IMG/VR virus record: IMGVR_UViG_3300028048_000075
Span: 32,001-96,000 of that record
Strand: one strand, 5' to 3'
Length of the DNA: 64,000 bases
Source of the DNA: a virus
Taxonomy: Duplodnaviria > Caudoviricetes
Within the stretch, counting starts at the first letter, position 1, and each line of letters begins with the position of its first letter. Made by a program: the position numbers and the translations under genes. The notes beneath the pieces were generated by a model. It had not been told where the DNA came from, searched no databases, and saw only the letters and a program-made list of their open reading frames with translations. Positions 2,310 to 14,527 of the stretch are shown piece after piece.

Positions 2310-2633
2310 ATGGCTAATAAAAATATTCTTAAAATGCCAGATGAGTATTTTCAGAATGTTAACAACGATGAAGATCTTTTGACTAGTGAAGAAGAAAATG
2401 CTAGGAGAGAAGTGGCGGACTATATGGAAAACCATTACATGGAAGAGTGTAGAGATGACTATAACAAGAATTCTTCAACTTCTAAGAAAGAAGAAGAAAA
2501 GAATGATCCGTTTATGACAGGTCTTGCTGTAGTCTGTTCCGCTGCACTGATTTCATCAATTGTTGGAGGAATTTCAACTTTCTTTACAAATAGGAAAGTT
2601 AATAAATTTCTCAAAGAACAGAAAAACAAGTAA
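2310..2633 (+). CDS. acidic protein with C-terminal TM helix
   Basis: GGAGG RBS, early promoter motif at 2265. Confidence 0.75.
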   Translation: MANKNILKMPDEYFQNVNNDEDLLTSEEENARREVADYMENHYMEECRDDYNKNSSTSKKEEEKNDPFMTGLAVVCSAALISSIVGGISTFFTNRKVNKFLKEQKNK

Positions 2634-2718
2634 AGCAAATTGAGAAAAAAGAGGGGATTTGATAATCCCTTCTTTTTTTTTATGACTATTTAATATAACA
2701 AAAAGAGGTGTATAAGTT

Positions 2719-2928
2719 ATGAAAAATCCATTTAAATCTGACGTTGTTAAAATGGTTATTATGCTTTTAACATGTGTTTCATTAATTGTAATCATAGTTT
2801 TACATAGTTTTGGAATAATTACTGAATTCGTTAAAGATGTTTCTATGCTATGTGTAATTTTGATATTGTTTTGCTTTTTGATATATGGAATAAAAGAATT
2901 TCATGATTTTAAAGACAAAAATGAATGA
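2719..2928 (+). CDS. small 2-TM membrane protein
   Basis: GAGG RBS, two hydrophobic segments. Confidence 0.65.
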   Translation: MKNPFKSDVVKMVIMLLTCVSLIVIIVLHSFGIITEFVKDVSMLCVILILFCFLIYGIKEFHDFKDKNE

Positions 2929-3022
2929 TTTTTATAAGAAGGAGTTTTGCACTCCTTCTTTTTTATTTATATATTATAAAAATGCAAATTACAACAAAAT
3001 ATCAATAAAGGGGTGTTATATT

Positions 3023-5428
3023 ATGTCTGAAGCTAAAGCTGTCATTTATGATGATGATAATATTAAAACTTTGGATTCTATTAGTGCTATACGATTACGT
3101 CCAGCAATGTATGTTGATGGAATTGGAGAGTCTGGTTTATATAAGATCGATTGCGAAGCTGTTCAAAACATTTTTGATGAATATTTGGTTGGAAGATGTA
3201 CATCTTGTAACGTTGAATATAACTCATCTACAGGATATATGAGAGTTGAAGATGATGGCGCTGGAATACCTATTGGTAAAATAGTCGATATTTTCACTAA
3301 AGCTCATACTGGTGGAAAGTTTGATAGAGAAGCATATGAGATAAGTTCAGGCCAGAATGGTGTTGGCAGTAAGGCGATAAATGCTCTTAGTAAAAGTCTT
3401 AGAGTTGAAGTTTGGAGAACAGAATATGTCGATAGGAGTGATAATAAAGTTCTTCCTAAGCATGCTGTTTTACAATTTGAAAAAGGTCGTCTTAAAGATG
3501 AATTCTACGAAGATGTTCCAAATTCCACAAAACATGGTACGCTTCTTGAATATTATTCTGATGATGAAATAATGAAAACTAACGTTAGAAACGTTAGAAG
3601 ATTTGCAGATTATTTGAATATGAATTCTTATTTGCTTCCAGGAATTCATATTTCATATACCGTCGATGGTAAAGAAAATGTTTTCTATCATGAAGGTGGT
3701 ATATCGGAATTATTCACAAATCGTTTTATAAAAGAAAAACATGTCAAAACTATGTTCGACCATATAGAAGTTCATGGAAATGAACGAATGTTTAGTTTTG
3801 ATATAGTATTTTCATATAATCCTATAAATACTGGAGATTCAAATATTGTATCTGCTGTAAATGGAAATAACACTCCATTACATGGAGTACATGTTTCTTC
3901 ATTTAGAGCTGGTGCAGCATTAGCACTTACAGATTATTTGAAAGAAAACAGTGATTTGATACCGAAATCTTTGAAAAACGTCAATATTTCCGGAACTATT
4001 GTTGGTGACAATATAGTTGCTGTTGTTTCTGTAAAGCACAGAGAACCATTGTATAGTGGTCAAACTAAAGAAGCATTTAAATCTGATGATGTTCAAGAAC
4101 CAATTAAGCAAACTACACGTAAAGTATTTGCGAAATGGTTGAGAGATAATCCTCAGGGCGCTAAGAAATTAGTTAGCATGATTATTGATTATGCTAAGTA
4201 TGAAGAAGAGAGAAAGAAACTTAAGAAAAATCTTATTGAATCTAAGGTAGCTAAAAGTGCTTTTGCTGCTAATGGTGTAGATCCTACGAAATATACTACT
4301 TGTAGAAGTAATAATCCTGAAGAAAGAGAACTCTTTATAGTAGAAGGAGACTCTGCTGGTGGTAACGTAGTACTTGCACAAGATCGTGAATTCCAAGCAC
4401 TTTATAAACTTACTGGTAAGATTCTTAACGTTATTAAATCAAACACAAGTAACTTGAGTAAAGTTATTATGGAATTGGTGAAAATTCTTGGTATGGGATT
4501 ACCTACTAATGGAAATCCTCCTAATTATAAGAATTTACAATACCATAAAATAATCATATTGACTGATGCTGATGATGATGGTGCACACATCGCTACACTT
4601 CTATTGGCATTCTTTTATAGATTCTATCCAAAACTTATTGAGGATGGAAATGTATTTATTGCTAATCCTCCGATTAAGAAACTCACAATGTCTAATGGAA
4701 AATACTTCTATATTCATACTGAAGCAGATTACAGTAGACTTATGAGAGAATTCATTTCTGAATCATTTGAGTTAATCAGTGCTAAGAATGGATACGTCAT
4801 GTCAAAAGGTTTCTTTGAGGAATACATTTATCACATTCAGGGATATGATAACCTTATTGAAAACCATGCACATGCATTAGCGATCGACAATGATCTTCTT
4901 GAGCATATTATAATTAATATCAATATTCTCACTCAGTGTAGTGATAATAGAGAAGATAAGTTTAACAAAGCTTTTTATAAGAACACAGGGTTCTATGTAC
5001 GTAAAATGGTTGGTCAACCTTATTACACATTTGATAAAGGAACTTATCATGCTAACGTACGTATAGATAAGAATTTTATAGATCATCATTTTTATGAGAT
5101 TGCTGACAAGCTTAATGAAATCATGTATTACGGTTTATCTTTAAGGGGAAAACGCTCCGGAAAAGTTTACCGTGGTACAATATATTCTCTCATGAAAGTT
5201 ATGAATGGAATACTTGGACCTAAAGTCGATATCAAGCGATTTAAAGGTCTTGGTGAAATGAGTTGTAGAGATCTTACAGAAACTACGATTAATCCTACAA
5301 AGAGATTGCTTACTCAAGTGAGAATGTCTGATGCAGAAAAAGCCGACAGAGCTATGCAAATCTTCATGAACGACACTTACATAAAGTATAAGCGATTATT
5401 CTATGCTGGAAGGATCGATTTTGACTAA
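3023..5428 (+). CDS. gyrB: type IIA topoisomerase B subunit (GyrB/ParE-like)
   Basis: IRLRPAMY, DDGAGIP, HTGGKF, GQNGVG, VEGDSAG, TDADDDGAHI, RFKGLGEM; start moved to the ATG after the GGGG RBS and early promoter. Confidence 0.93.
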   Translation: MSEAKAVIYDDDNIKTLDSISAIRLRPAMYVDGIGESGLYKIDCEAVQNIFDEYLVGRCTSCNVEYNSSTGYMRVEDDGAGIPIGKIVDIFTKAHTGGKFDREAYEISSGQNGVGSKAINALSKSLRVEVWRTEYVDRSDNKVLPKHAVLQFEKGRLKDEFYEDVPNSTKHGTLLEYYSDDEIMKTNVRNVRRFADYLNMNSYLLPGIHISYTVDGKENVFYHEGGISELFTNRFIKEKHVKTMFDHIEVHGNERMFSFDIVFSYNPINTGDSNIVSAVNGNNTPLHGVHVSSFRAGAALALTDYLKENSDLIPKSLKNVNISGTIVGDNIVAVVSVKHREPLYSGQTKEAFKSDDVQEPIKQTTRKVFAKWLRDNPQGAKKLVSMIIDYAKYEEERKKLKKNLIESKVAKSAFAANGVDPTKYTTCRSNNPEERELFIVEGDSAGGNVVLAQDREFQALYKLTGKILNVIKSNTSNLSKVIMELVKILGMGLPTNGNPPNYKNLQYHKIIILTDADDDGAHIATLLLAFFYRFYPKLIEDGNVFIANPPIKKLTMSNGKYFYIHTEADYSRLMREFISESFELISAKNGYVMSKGFFEEYIYHIQGYDNLIENHAHALAIDNDLLEHIIININILTQCSDNREDKFNKAFYKNTGFYVRKMVGQPYYTFDKGTYHANVRIDKNFIDHHFYEIADKLNEIMYYGLSLRGKRSGKVYRGTIYSLMKVMNGILGPKVDIKRFKGLGEMSCRDLTETTINPTKRLLTQVRMSDAEKADRAMQIFMNDTYIKYKRLFYAGRIDFD

Positions 5429-5435
5429 ACCCAAA

Positions 5436-5479
5436 TTTGTGAGAAATTATTGTAACATATAAATATAATTTCTCACAAA
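5436..5479. repeat. 15-bp perfect inverted repeat enclosing a late-type promoter motif (AACA-N6-TA, 5454-5465)
   Basis: tttgtgagaaattat...ataatttctcacaaa. Confidence 0.7.
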
Positions 5480-5586
5480 GGGTTCGTTTTTGTACACCAG
5501 ATGTTCGAAGGGTTTTACTTTAGAGCATTTTGTTAAGAACATTTGGTCATTTTCGATTTTACAACTCTTTTTGAATTTTTGTAGAG

Positions 5587-5812
5587 TTTAATTCAGGATT
5601 CCGGAATAGACATCTATTACCCTTTGCATGGTAGGCGGATGCGTCGGCTGAGTCTCGAGACCGTAGGTTGATGGTCGGGATCCTGTTAAAATTAGCACAT
5701 ATCCGGTAATCGAGCAATTATCGAGTGTGCGGGGGTTTGGAACTTGCTCCTCTAGACCTGACAGCGGGGCGTCGACACAATTATCTAGTCGATGCTCCGC
5801 TATTTATTTTTT
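5587..5812 (+). ncRNA. unidentified multi-stem structured RNA with putative kissing loop
   Basis: GC-rich island; helices 5594-5603/5676-5685, 5695-5700/5725-5730, 5733-5741/5751-5759, 5763-5776/5788-5801, all with G-U pairs on the + strand. Confidence 0.7.
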
Positions 5813-5909
5813 AAGCCTATCCACTTTCATGGTTTATGTTTTACCGGAAGTGGAGATTTTATAACTAGATTTTCTCCGTCATCTAGTCAAAACTATAGAT
5901 TTTTTTTTC

Positions 5910-6009
5910 GTCGGTTTGGTTTAGTGGCAGAACGCCTTGTATACTTGAATAGTTACTACACTCCTGTTTCAAGTTTGAGGAAACATATGTTCGATTCATA
6001 TAACTGACA
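5910..6009 (+). ncRNA. tRNA-like RNA with extended anticodon arm (possible intron-containing tRNA)
   Basis: Acceptor GTCGGTT/AACTGAC, D arm GTTT-AGTGGCA-GAAC, T arm ATATG-TTCGATT-CATAT; 36 nt between anticodon-stem strands. Confidence 0.7.
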
Positions 6010-6011
6010 AA

Positions 6012-6094
6012 GTGAGCCCAAAATATAAAAAAGAGATTCGAGTCCATCCAATAAAACGATCTCCTGCTGAAGACAGCACAATTTTGGGTTTCAC
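6012..6094 (+). ncRNA. structured RNA candidate (three-way junction)
   Basis: Closing stem gtgagcccaaaat/attttgggtttcac; inner gagat..atctc and tgctg-aaga-cagca hairpins. Confidence 0.5.
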
Positions 6095-6135
6095 GTTTTG
6101 TAAACTTTTTGAAAGGTTGTTTACATTATCATTCG

Positions 6136-6171
6136 AATGGACTGGATATCTGTCCAGTCCATTTATTTTTT
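6136..6171 (+). terminator. intrinsic terminator ending first ncRNA block
   Basis: aatggactgga/tccagtccatt stem plus T-rich tail. Confidence 0.7.
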
Positions 6172-6203
6172 AAAATACAAAGTATATAATAATATATTTG
6201 TAA

Positions 6204-6276
6204 GGGATATTAGCTCAGTAGGTAGAGCAACGGACTGTTAATCCGTGTGTCGATGGTTCGATCCCATCATATCCCG
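6204..6276 (+). tRNA. tRNA-Asn(GTT), no encoded CCA
   Basis: Canonical cloverleaf, anticodon loop CT-GTT-AA, GGTTCGATCCC. Confidence 0.93.
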
Positions 6277-6279
6277 AGA

Positions 6280-6493
6280 CCGTATTGCGGAGTTGGCATA
6301 TACCAAGTGGATTGGAATTTTGTGCACTAGAAAAATTCTTATGTTTAATATCAGGTAATACTAGGTAATTCGTGCTGATAACTAAACGTAAAATAAAATC
6401 CCGCCAATGGCGATGAATACGGAACCCCGGATCGAAACTTTGGTGCGATAACGAATGACAGGGCCCTTTAGTCATTCGAAGTCAGTTTCGATT
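6280..6493 (+). ncRNA. unidentified structured RNA between tRNA-Asn and tRNA-Lys
   Basis: Long-range ccgtatt/aatacgg; nested helices ggaatttt/aaaattct, tatcag/ctgata, atcgaaact/agtttcgat, cgaatgac/gtcattcg. Confidence 0.55.
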
Positions 6494-6499
6494 ATTTTT

Positions 6500-6572
6500 G
6501 GACTTTTAGCTCAGACGGTAGAGCAACGCCCTTTTAAGGCGTGGGTCGCGGGTTCAAATCCCGCAAAGTTCA
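6500..6572 (+). tRNA. tRNA-Lys(TTT), no encoded CCA
   Basis: Cloverleaf, ACGCC-CTTTTAA-GGCGT anticodon arm. Confidence 0.92.
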
Positions 6573-6640
6573 TTGACCACGATAGAGATAGTGTAGAGTT
6601 TAAAACTTTTCCGAACCATTATCTTAGTAGTGGTCTTTAT

Positions 6641-6713
6641 TCGGATGTCGACAAGTGGTAAGTCAGTGGTTCTTGGTGCCACTATTCCGTAGGTTCGAAT
6701 CCTACCATCCGAT
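6641..6713 (+). tRNA. tRNA-Gln(TTG), atypical C33
   Basis: U1-A72 acceptor TCGGATG/CATCCGA, loop TC-TTG-GT, GTAGG-TTCGAAT-CCTAC. Confidence 0.8.
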
Positions 6714-6783
6714 ATTTGTACTAATGTGGATTCACATTGCTTTCCGGCTACATTTTGGTACAACCATGAAATTTTCCTCTTTT

Positions 6784-6819
6784 GGGTACACAGGAGTTTT
6801 CTCCTGTGTATCTTTTTTT
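6784..6819 (+). terminator. intrinsic terminator ending tRNA block
   Basis: tacacaggag-tttt-ctcctgtgta plus T7. Confidence 0.8.
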
Positions 6820-6866
6820 CGTTCACAATTTTTGACATTTGAATATAACTGAAGAAGGAAAACAAT

Positions 6867-7526
6867 ATGAATAAAAAGAAAAGCTTATTCACTATTGTTA
6901 CATGTAACATGAAACCAAGACAAATGGGAAAAGAACTTAGAAAAATATTTGCACAAAGGTCTCATGAGTCAGATCTTTCATTCATGCAAAAGAATTCTAA
7001 AGAACACAAAAATTTAAGAGGGAATCAATATATTCTCCAAATAGATAATGGACGTAGTGTAGAGAGTTATTTCTTTACAGTATATAGTAGTCAGAATGGT
7101 TTCTATTTAATGGACAATAAGGAACTTAAAAAATTTCATACTGAACAGAATTGTCTTAAATATAAATTAGCAAAAACTTATCTTAGAAACCATAAATCAT
7201 CAGAATCGATACGTTATACATGTATCAAATCTAATGAACGATTGGTTTCTGGTGATATTTTTGATGTGCTAAATAACGGATATACTTATGGCAAGAGGGT
7301 AAATATAATGGCCAATACTACAGAAACTCTTAAAGAAAAACCATATAATAGGATTATCCAATTGTATGATACACTTAAACAATCTAGAGAAGTTGGAGTA
7401 TATGCCAGTTCTTTAGGAGCATTTGGTGAAGAAAATCCACATATAATTGGTGGATATATACTAAATGAGAAAAAAGAAGAATTAGACCCAAGTGAGGATA
7501 ATGACGATGGAACCAGCGAAGATTAG
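6867..7526 (+). CDS. hypothetical protein (late promoter)
   Basis: ORF with AAGGA RBS, GACA-N6-TA at 6834. Confidence 0.7.
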   Translation: MNKKKSLFTIVTCNMKPRQMGKELRKIFAQRSHESDLSFMQKNSKEHKNLRGNQYILQIDNGRSVESYFFTVYSSQNGFYLMDNKELKKFHTEQNCLKYKLAKTYLRNHKSSESIRYTCIKSNERLVSGDIFDVLNNGYTYGKRVNIMANTTETLKEKPYNRIIQLYDTLKQSREVGVYASSLGAFGEENPHIIGGYILNEKKEELDPSEDNDDGTSED

Positions 7527-10059: not shown

Positions 10060-10208
10060 AAAAACCTCAATAATTCATTATATTTTAATGTTTTTGCCTC
10101 TAATTTATTAAAAAACGCGTAATATTGAAATATAGCTTACTACGTGTATTGTGCGCTTAATTTATTTATAATTATATATTCTATCTATAGAAAATAGGAG
10201 GTCCCATT

Positions 10209-10676: not shown

Positions 10677-10707
10677 TTATATATGTTATTAATAACAGGA
10701 GGAAACC

Positions 10708-14486: not shown

Positions 14487-14527
14487 TTTTGAGTTATATA
14501 TTCTGAGAATAGGAGTTAGATAGAACT

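Follow-up and report, generated by a model that had tools for sequence, protein, structure and literature searches.

Genomic setting of the RNA locus

The stretch of DNA analysed here (hereafter, the window) spans 64,000 nucleotides and corresponds to bases 32001–96000 of the 129.6-kb IMG/VR virus record IMGVR_UViG_3300028048_000075, which has an estimated completeness of 46%. At positions 5587–5812 of the window lies an element that, judging from comparison with its homologues, is a genuine gene for a structured RNA carried by AR9-like jumbo phages of the cattle gut, and whose two adjacent core hairpins have apical loops predicted to pair with each other in a so-called kiss. Among the products of the window phage are UvsX, topoisomerase II, and the split beta subunits of multisubunit RNA polymerases, and because the phage's RNA polymerase beta subunit is nearest to those of the Bacillus phages AR9 and PBS1 (30% identity), we assign it to the AR9-like jumbo phages. 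The window stretch occurs in sequencing runs from 15 studies, all of them metagenomes of the bovine gut or of gut.

The RNA locus is found 160 nt downstream of a gyrB-like gene, where it forms the first element of a 1.4-kb island that is free of open reading frames and also contains genes for tRNA-Asn, tRNA-Lys, and tRNA-Gln, these being located 390–830 nt downstream of the RNA. The element (5587–5812) has a G+C content of ~50% as against ~31% for the genome. As for the other side of the island, the first gene after it (6867–7526 in the window, and 6471–6923 in the relative L139) encodes a protein without a Pfam family. This flanking protein is kept across lineages (28% identity, E 4e-22), and thus gyrB and that gene flank the variable RNA island on either side.

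Predicted fold of the window RNA

On the + strand, the element folds with a minimum free energy (MFE) of −83.4 kcal/mol and a z-score of −3.91, with none of 200 shuffles as good, while the minus strand of the same region gives a z-score of −1.20. Moreover, the abundant G·U pairs in this fold make sense on the + strand only. Coordinates of the individual parts are collected in Table 1. The 5′ half of the element is taken up by a domain (domain 1) that is closed by a helix between 5594–5603 and 5676–5685, and this is followed by two hairpins (H1 and H2), and then by a terminator hairpin (H3) in which 5763–5776 pairs with 5788–5801 ahead of a U-rich tail at 5802–5812. The core made up of H1, H2, and H3 is single-stranded on its 5′ side (AAG or UAG), and its 3′ helix is the hairpin terminator.

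A sequence-only reading of this locus had already described the closing helix of domain 1, the two core hairpins with their loops, the complementarity between GAGCA and TGCTC, the 14-bp terminal helix, and the U-rich tail, and all of these are borne out by the fold. The same reading took the unit to be ~220 nt long, for which a 5′ edge near 5585 matches the pattern of substitutions described below, though only the 3′ 120 nt are conserved across lineages.

Homologues and extent of the conserved unit

A BLAST search with the element against 50,697 GenBank phages returned no match, and BLAST of the island against relatives recovered the near-identical lineage only, even where the GyrB proteins are 77–80% identical. 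Homology was instead shown with a covariance model. Relatives (designated here by L numbers) were reached via GyrB in IMG/VR, in metagenome contigs, and in a collection of 5.8 billion proteins; IMG/VR was poor in relatives, and GyrB look-ups in Logan, ENA, and JGI assemblies supplied most of them. In the intergenic DNA of these relatives, the same place is occupied by a long and then a short hairpin ahead of a terminator, with the sequence itself being unrelated. Alignments of the core made with MAFFT were structurally wrong and were replaced by model-guided ones. The covariance model (R2) was seeded on one lineage and extended to six sequences, none of which is of the window's type, and it detects the window copy at 5691–5811 with 31.6 bits (E 4.6e-6 in 194 kb). 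Copies in L136, L140, L141, L122 (E 1.7e-9), L003 (E 2e-6), L149, and L148 are detected as well. Conversely, no core motif was found near the gyrB genes of L123, L126, L143, L144, L145, L150, and L179/L180, which are partial contigs, and no homologue was detectable with the covariance model in AR9 itself. The RNA is single-copy in the two large records searched, these being the window's own genome and a 263-kb relative. Two pattern searches were of little use: ATGGTTT..TTTTACCG matched 117 loci in IMG/VR, essentially all by chance, and TTTTACCG..AAACGATATAT matched 23 loci, with the RNA present only on an already known contig.

By these sequence comparisons, the conserved unit is the 3′ 120 nt only (5691–5812, comprising H1, H2, and the terminator). 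Its parts follow one another in the same order, namely H1 of ~15 bp, GG, H2 of 8–9 bp with an invariant closing G·U pair, RAC, and the terminator. What lies 5′ of this core depends on the lineage: L137 and L149 have a different multi-helix domain, L003 has a larger one, and L139, L002, and L142 carry none. Domain 1 of L136, L140, and L141 is identical to that of the window save for one U inserted in a loop. Domain 1 is thus an accessory limited to the window's lineage, and its fold is a single-sequence prediction without covariation.

A comparison of the island with the adjacent gene further suggests how the RNA is distributed. In L140, the entire RNA island (2588–4034, corresponding to 5430–6870 in the window) is 94.5% identical, as compared with 76% for the adjacent GyrB proteins, from which it would follow that the island moves between genomes. 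In addition, the GyrB proteins of L121 and L124 are 77% identical to that of the window, yet their RNA is of the L002 type. On such sequence evidence, the island behaves as a cassette exchanged between phage genomes.

Covariation of the stems and the junction

Statistics for the stems were derived from a 13-sequence, model-guided alignment (A9). Here, 96.4% of the cells in the stems are standard pairs, compared with 59% in shuffles (none of 500 as high), and 33 of the 36 stem pairs are changed on both sides. When the partners are slid by 1–3 columns, pairing falls to 32–49%. Across the 13 sequences, 13 of the 15 pairs in H1 are changed on both sides, H2 has all of its cells paired and 7 of 8 pairs changed on both sides, and all 13 aligned pairs in H3 covary. 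Among the few differences in the core of L140 is a compensatory G–C to A–U double change in the upper stem of H1. In contrast to the varying stems, the junction is invariant in these sequences, and consists of a G–C pair closing H1, the GG linker, the G·U pair closing H2 (in 13 of 13), and RAC. An A–U pair opens H3 in 12 of the 13.

Complementarity of the two apical loops

In the window taken by itself, a 5-bp Watson–Crick match between the loops of H1 (L1) and H2 (L2) arises in 1.3% of loop shuffles of the same composition; this match is suggestive but not conclusive, and the evidence for more than chance lies in the homologues. Written as L1/L2, the pairing strands are GAGCA/UGCUC in the window, L136, and L140, UGAGCA/UGCUCG in L137, UGAGCG/UGCUCG in L149, UAACCUA/UAGGUUA in L139, UAACCC/GGGUUA in L002, L121, and L124, UAACCC/GGGUUG in L142, AACCC/GGGUU in L122 and L148, and UAUCCCA/UGGGGUA in L003. 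Cognate loops therefore pair over 5–7 bp in every class (counting G·U in L149 and L003), while non-cognate loops, that is, L1 of one class with L2 of another, pair over just 1–2 bp. The share of loop shuffles that match the observed kiss runs from 0.08% (L139) to ~1.4% in five of nine representatives. Individual substitutions tell the same: at one paired position, L002 has C in L1 and G in L2 where L139 has U and A, and at another, L002 has A in L1 and U in L2 where L003 has U and G. The GAGCA and AACCC classes differ at three paired positions. Moreover, the L2 substitutions in L140 hit unpaired 5′ nucleotides and spare UGCUC.

As the covariance model was built without loop–loop pairs, the alignment is neutral toward the kiss. 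On fixed columns of this alignment, 92.3% of the kiss cells pair, against 70% in shuffles (none of 500 as high), and three of the five kiss pairs are changed on both sides; slid controls are 39–49% paired. Because the loops have stayed complementary through compensating mutations, we judge the predicted loop–loop contact to be functional. Since the loop sequences vary freely while matching each other, they would not be aimed at a third molecule, and it is seemingly the pairing itself that is the selected feature.

The lengths of the helices are likewise restricted. In all classes, H1 has 13–15 bp, H2 has 8–9 bp, and the kiss has 5–7 bp, and the sum of H2 and the kiss is steady at ~14–15 bp (9 plus 5 or 6, or 8 plus 6 or 7), with 13 in L122. 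H1 of L142 is made up of 15 uninterrupted base pairs. In both L1 and L2, just 0–1 spare nucleotides separate the pairing strand from the 3′ strand of the stem that bears the loop, and on the 5′ side there are 1–2 spare nucleotides in L1 (5 in L122) and 2–4 in L2.

Table 1. Positions of the RNA parts and of neighbouring elements (window numbering unless a relative is named)
Feature	Position	Strand	Description
Promoter-like AACA-N6-TA box	5454–5465	+	Putative start at the last A, ~5465
Variable leader	5466–5593	+	Hairpin at ~5493–5549; unconstrained spacer at ~5554–5583
Accessory 5′ domain (domain 1)	5594–5685	+	Three-way junction; two internal hairpins rich in G·U
Core hairpin H1	5695–5730	+	6 bp, 3×1 internal loop, 7 bp
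H1 apical loop L1	5711–5716	+	CGAGCA
Kissing helix, L1 strand	5712–5716	+	GAGCA; predicted to pair with 5745–5749
GG linker between H1 and H2	5731–5732	+	Within GCGGG, invariant in 13/13 aligned sequences
Core hairpin H2	5733–5759	+	9 bp, closing G·U pair
H2 loop L2	5742–5750	+	ACUUGCUCC
Kissing helix, L2 strand	5745–5749	+	UGCUC; predicted to pair with 5712–5716
GAC linker between H2 and terminator	5760–5762	+	Consensus RAC; GAC or AAC in 13/13 sequences
Intrinsic terminator H3	5763–5812	+	14 bp including 2 G·U; loop 5777–5787
Second hairpin, window	5820–5856
Second hairpin, L002	~7160–7202
Second hairpin, L139	~6168–6208
Second hairpin, L137	~6150–6192
Second hairpin, L003	~6925–6965

Transcription unit

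An AACA-N6-TA box is present upstream of the core in 13 of 13 homologues, with an N6 that varies (TATAAA, TATTTA, ATAAAA). In AR9, late promoters have the consensus AACA-N6-T(A/G), which is read by the non-virion RNA polymerase and whose last A or G is the start (PMC5312081). The box of the RNA gene equals this late consensus, and the RNA is thus probably transcribed late by the phage's own non-virion RNA polymerase. We infer a start near 5465, from which the primary transcript would be ~345 nt in length. Box and core are 39–62 nt apart in the short forms and 313 nt apart in L003, with ~205–226 nt between them in the lineages of the window and L137. In the window, a perfect inverted repeat of 13 bp (UUUGUGAGAAAUU/AAUUUCUCACAAA) at 5437–5479, directly after the gyrB stop codon, carries the box within its loop; this repeat is kept in L136 and L140 and not in other lineages. 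Two other promoter candidates were set aside: sigma-70 promoters gave only weak 9-of-12 matches and are not relevant for a phage with its own RNA polymerases, and a conserved TTTTTGTAG immediately ahead of the RNA is not preserved in L140.

At the 3′ end, the covariance model otherwise matches only terminators with a hairpin-plus-U-run design, whether in the phage's own genome, the 263-kb relative, or AR9. H3 together with its U-run is thus a terminator of the generic type in these phages.

The element is represented in metatranscriptome contigs that come from three studies. One of them (X11; 1026 nt, depth 112) spans 4981–6008 and is the sole contig there, with none on the rest of gyrB, and another (X19; 534 nt, depth 58) spans 5223–5757. 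The RNA runs are represented by Logan contigs, and uncovered parts of the stretch carry no meaning. Taken together, the contigs are only a hint of RNA expression. Their substitutions cluster within 5554–5583 (eight in one contig) and then cease until 5782, which puts the start of the constrained RNA at about 5585.

Known families and closest systems

When the whole window was searched with cmscan against the 4227 families of Rfam 15 at gathering thresholds, only the three tRNAs were found. Even with E-values of up to 10, region 5400–6200 gave chance-level matches, of which the best was U7 with 17 bits against a threshold of 34, and Rfam searches of the homologous loci in L002 and L003 found nothing. 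The RNA thus represents a family that matches no Rfam entry, although it may be among the unnamed members of a large catalogue of candidate structured RNAs from IMG/VR (PMC10690425). While it is not a member of the pRNA, ROOL, GOLLD, or riboswitch classes, it may work like those among them that self-associate.

Of the known systems, phi29 pRNA (RF00044) shows an evident likeness, as it too is phage-encoded, has a size of 120–170 nt, and contains two helices with mutually complementary loops and a third helix at the junction. Moreover, its loop sequences differ among relatives with complementarity being kept. In several of the lineages described here, the pair reads AACC/GGUU, as is presumably the case in phi29 pRNA. 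On the other hand, there is no match to the pRNA model even at E = 10, the present RNA is without a helix joining its 5′ and 3′ ends and has a plain terminator hairpin as its third helix, and it belongs to 260-kb AR9-like, myovirus-type genomes rather than 20-kb phi29-like ones. Furthermore, pRNA builds an intermolecular ring on the portal, and no link to packaging is known for the present RNA.

ROOL and GOLLD are phage RNAs that form RNA-only nanocages and are encoded near tRNA islands, ROOL having come first from rumen metagenomes, and GOLLD resembles the present RNA in that its 3′ part is conserved while its 5′ part varies (10.1101/2024.12.08.627333). Both assemble in part by covarying quaternary kissing loops (10.1101/2024.12.08.627333), whereas oligomerisation of the present RNA is putative. 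They are also four to seven times larger (~580 to >800 nt), as compared with a core of 120 nt and a whole of at most ~350 nt here, and are unrelated in sequence and secondary structure.

As in the enterovirus X/Y/K element, two adjacent, unequal hairpins would be joined by a loop–loop helix of ~6 bp, and adding this helix to the short stem gives roughly the length of the long one (PMC9189406). This element differs in being an RNA-virus replication origin that is bound by the replicase and in which the kiss is intramolecular (PMC9189406). In the present RNA, the loop of the long arm appears too small for the connectors that such a fold needs. The layout of the present loops is that of coaxial kisses of the HIV-1 dimerisation initiation site type, where loops of 7–11 nt have their paired stretch flush with the 3′ side and 1–4 unpaired nucleotides on the 5′ side. 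Different from these, however, in which a self-complementary palindrome lies on one hairpin, the present RNA has two unlike loops and would pair directionally, head-to-tail.

A proposed kiss between molecules

With a probability of about 0.5, we take the locus to be a single-copy gene for a stand-alone, structured small RNA with an intermolecular kiss and a scaffold-like role. The non-virion RNA polymerase of the phage would make this RNA late from the AACA-N6-TA box, located ~225 nt before the core, and transcription would end at an ordinary hairpin-plus-U terminator. The working part would be the 3′ 120 nt, where H1 and H2 are set on the invariant junction (G–C, GG, G·U, and RAC), with the 5′ domain (5594–5685) a lineage-specific appendage. 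In a coaxial kiss, the short 5′ connector would cross the deep groove, and the loop–loop helix would stack on both stems. H1, kiss, and H2 would then form a rod of ~30 bp with the bases of the stems at opposite ends, and as these bases are joined by only GG, the kiss would form most easily between molecules. If the kiss were stacked on H1, the base of H2 would end up ~12 bp too high, and if it were stacked on H2, the lengths would fit (15 versus 14–15), yet the single spare nucleotide in L1 could not span the kiss. Hence, L1 of one copy may pair with L2 of another to give a closed head-to-tail dimer, a ring, or a chain, and a closed dimer of two equal rods would be geometrically self-consistent. 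The geometry, in other words, suggests that the kiss is intermolecular, in a dimer or oligomer, rather than within one molecule. In the tRNA/small-RNA island of the phage, we infer a self-assembling scaffold or a sequestering particle as the possible role.

There is precedent for such a situation, as a covarying kissing loop in ROOL was first read as tertiary and proved to be quaternary (10.1101/2024.12.08.627333), and RNAs of <200 nt can form oligomers and filaments (10.64898/2026.07.01.735769). Somewhat more tentatively, and a little short of an even bet, the 120-nt core might be a minimal natural self-assembling RNA that forms a dimer, ring, or filament with the terminator and 5′ domains pointing outward, and would be a small, independent counterpart of ROOL/GOLLD and of the pRNA ring. 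The sequence-only reading had taken the element to be a tertiary-folded functional RNA without a known family, in the form of a ribozyme, an aptamer, or a protein scaffold. While the absence from Rfam, the conserved structured RNA on the + strand, and the selected loop pairing (checked among homologues, where it is conserved through compensatory changes) uphold this, the geometry would fit a two-molecule kiss better than a tertiary one, and nothing points specifically to a ribozyme or an aptamer.

Several points weigh against an intermolecular kiss and the data on which it is built. The case for it comes from A-form geometry worked out by hand. At ~15 bp, H1 has the length of H2 and the kiss combined (~14–15 bp), just as the cis fold of enterovirus X/Y/K needs, and the bulges in H1 might permit bending. 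The constant sum of H2 and kiss fits a defined rod length, but it fits a kiss within one molecule equally well. As for the alignment, its 13 sequences make up only seven classes, with several being near-identical, and it was fitted to the structure, which inflates the pairing numbers for the stems, although the margin is still large. The MFE structure of L003 places the L1 strand in an internal loop of a larger H1, and L122 and L148 lack a clean U-tail. Finally, neither the ends of the RNA nor its strand or abundance can be read from the metatranscriptome contigs, and DNA may be present in RNA libraries.

Alternative explanations

The strongest of the other explanations, and a serious one although less likely than a kiss between molecules, is that the kiss occurs within one molecule. 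In this case, it would be stacked on H2, and the resulting rod of 14–15 bp would lie beside the 15-bp H1 in a compact globular fold that binds a phage or host protein or a ligand, much as X/Y/K of enteroviruses binds the replicase. Neighbouring hairpins kinetically favour pairing in cis, the length of H1 is about that of H2 plus the kiss in every class, and the invariant junction (GCGGG, G·U, and RAC) is what would be expected of a fixed tertiary core. Furthermore, a 6-bp kiss between adjacent hairpins that is stacked on the shorter one has a precedent (PMC9189406). However, with just 1–2 unpaired nucleotides on the 5′ side and 0–1 on the 3′ side, L1 cannot span a helix of 5–7 bp unless the kiss is stacked on H1, and stacking on both stems puts their bases ~30 bp apart with a link of only GG. 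H1 of L142, moreover, lacks any bulge at which to bend. In the enterovirus element, the long arm has a large loop and long connectors, and this too counts against a kiss in cis here.

Considerably less probable is a cis-acting leader, either a riboswitch or an attenuator, in which H1, H2, and the kiss would sense a signal and gate the terminator (5763–5812) ahead of the downstream tRNA-like and tRNA genes. A structured domain does directly precede a terminator at the head of an RNA-gene island. Moreover, the C-run in the 5′ strand of the terminator in L137, L149, and L139 can pair with the invariant GGGG junction (ΔG of −8 to −10 kcal/mol, with 0–7% of shuffles as good), and the junction GCGGGG of the window mimics the 5′ strand of the terminator. 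Yet, the alternative pairing is no better than in shuffles for L002, L142, L122, L003, and the window (24–86% as good). A simple duplex scan, which a subtle switch could escape, found no conserved antiterminator, as five of the eight sequence types were shuffle-like and the positions were non-homologous. In addition, the terminator does not overlap with the aptamer-like part, the downstream elements are preceded by conserved AT-rich boxes of their own, no known riboswitch class matches, and freely varying loops form no fixed ligand pocket.

We deem it highly improbable that cleavage in the GG linker turns H1 and H2 into an antisense/target pair or into separate RNAs joined by the kiss. Separation of the hairpins would relieve the steric strain of a coaxial kiss, and complementarity is limited to the loops, as in kissing antisense systems. 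Such a pair would resemble the plasmid RNA I/RNA II system, or the immunity RNAs of phages P1 (c4) and P4 (CI), in which loops pair with sites on the same transcript. However, no sign of processing is seen at the linker, the RNA-library contigs run through it, the invariant junction closed by conserved pairs suggests an intact three-helix junction, and an immunity RNA is of no evident use to a lytic jumbo phage.

Lastly, that the loop complementarity is coincidental and the element no more than several stable hairpins within a 3′ untranslated region is close to refuted by the homologous sequences, for although a single-sequence 5-bp match has a ~1% chance and could be met by any reader scanning many loops, four different loop-pair sequences stay complementary with three of five positions changed on both sides, all stems covary, and the covariance model finds the element across lineages.

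The interest of the RNA stems from the fact that phage tRNA islands keep yielding structured RNAs, of which the best known, ROOL and GOLLD, are RNA-only assemblies with kissing loops. The present RNA is far smaller and stems from a similar location. Its architecture is simple, and its kiss has been mutated and compensated several times in nature. With a size of 120 nt, it is easily transcribed, mutated, and tested for the formation of dimers or rings, and so could show whether RNAs of phage tRNA islands self-associate in general. For the uncultured AR9-like jumbo phages of the rumen, it further offers initial access to their non-coding repertoire. Should the kiss prove to be intramolecular, the RNA would represent a new compact fold built on an invariant junction and would probably serve as a binding site for protein.

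Other elements of the island and the genome

A second hairpin is located 8–20 nt after the terminator in every lineage (Table 1). Its outer stem covaries (CCACUUUC/GGAAGUGG, UUCUCUAUC/GAUAGAGAA, AAUCAAUG/CAUUGAUU, and CUAAAG/CUUUAG), while its interior is almost invariant and consists of AUGGUUU, a U-rich loop, and UUUUACCG, such that its sequence conservation exceeds that of the kissing RNA. A candidate H-type pseudoknot is also present (5846–5892 in the window and 6175–6229 in L137), where ACUAGAU within the loop of a GGAGA...UCUCC hairpin is complementary to AUCUAGU a short way downstream. This candidate is 91% identical between the window and L137, with the flanks being unrelated.

Further downstream are tRNA-like genes that are called neither by ARAGORN nor by the Rfam tRNA model (window ~5909–6009, L003 ~7020–7146, L124 ~6720–6800, L142 ~6228–6320, and L150 ~5948–6052). 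They combine an acceptor stem of 7 bp with a D-arm and a perfect T-arm whose loop is of the GUUCGAUUC type, but have tens of extra nucleotides in place of the anticodon arm. One of the metatranscriptome contigs ends at 6008, near the 3′ end of the tRNA-like gene in the window. Close to the 3′ end of the island, the + strand carries a conserved UUUUUCAUG-CUUUCCUCCUUA (window ~6766–6785, L124 ~6843–6870, L139 ~6305–6335, and L142 ~6375–6400), which holds an anti-Shine-Dalgarno CCUCCU, like that at the 3′ end of 16S rRNA, beside the complement of a start codon.

Elsewhere in the window, UUAUAUAUU(A/C)U boxes are found 15–25 nt before ribosome-binding sites (~2275–2295, ~10165–10185, 10677–10690, and 14490–14505). 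These resemble the early-promoter consensus of AR9, AAATATATATTAT-N6-G (PMC5312081). A dUTPase gene is present at 252–812. The promoter-like boxes suggest that the window phage shares the two-polymerase promoter logic of AR9, despite encoding a dUTPase.

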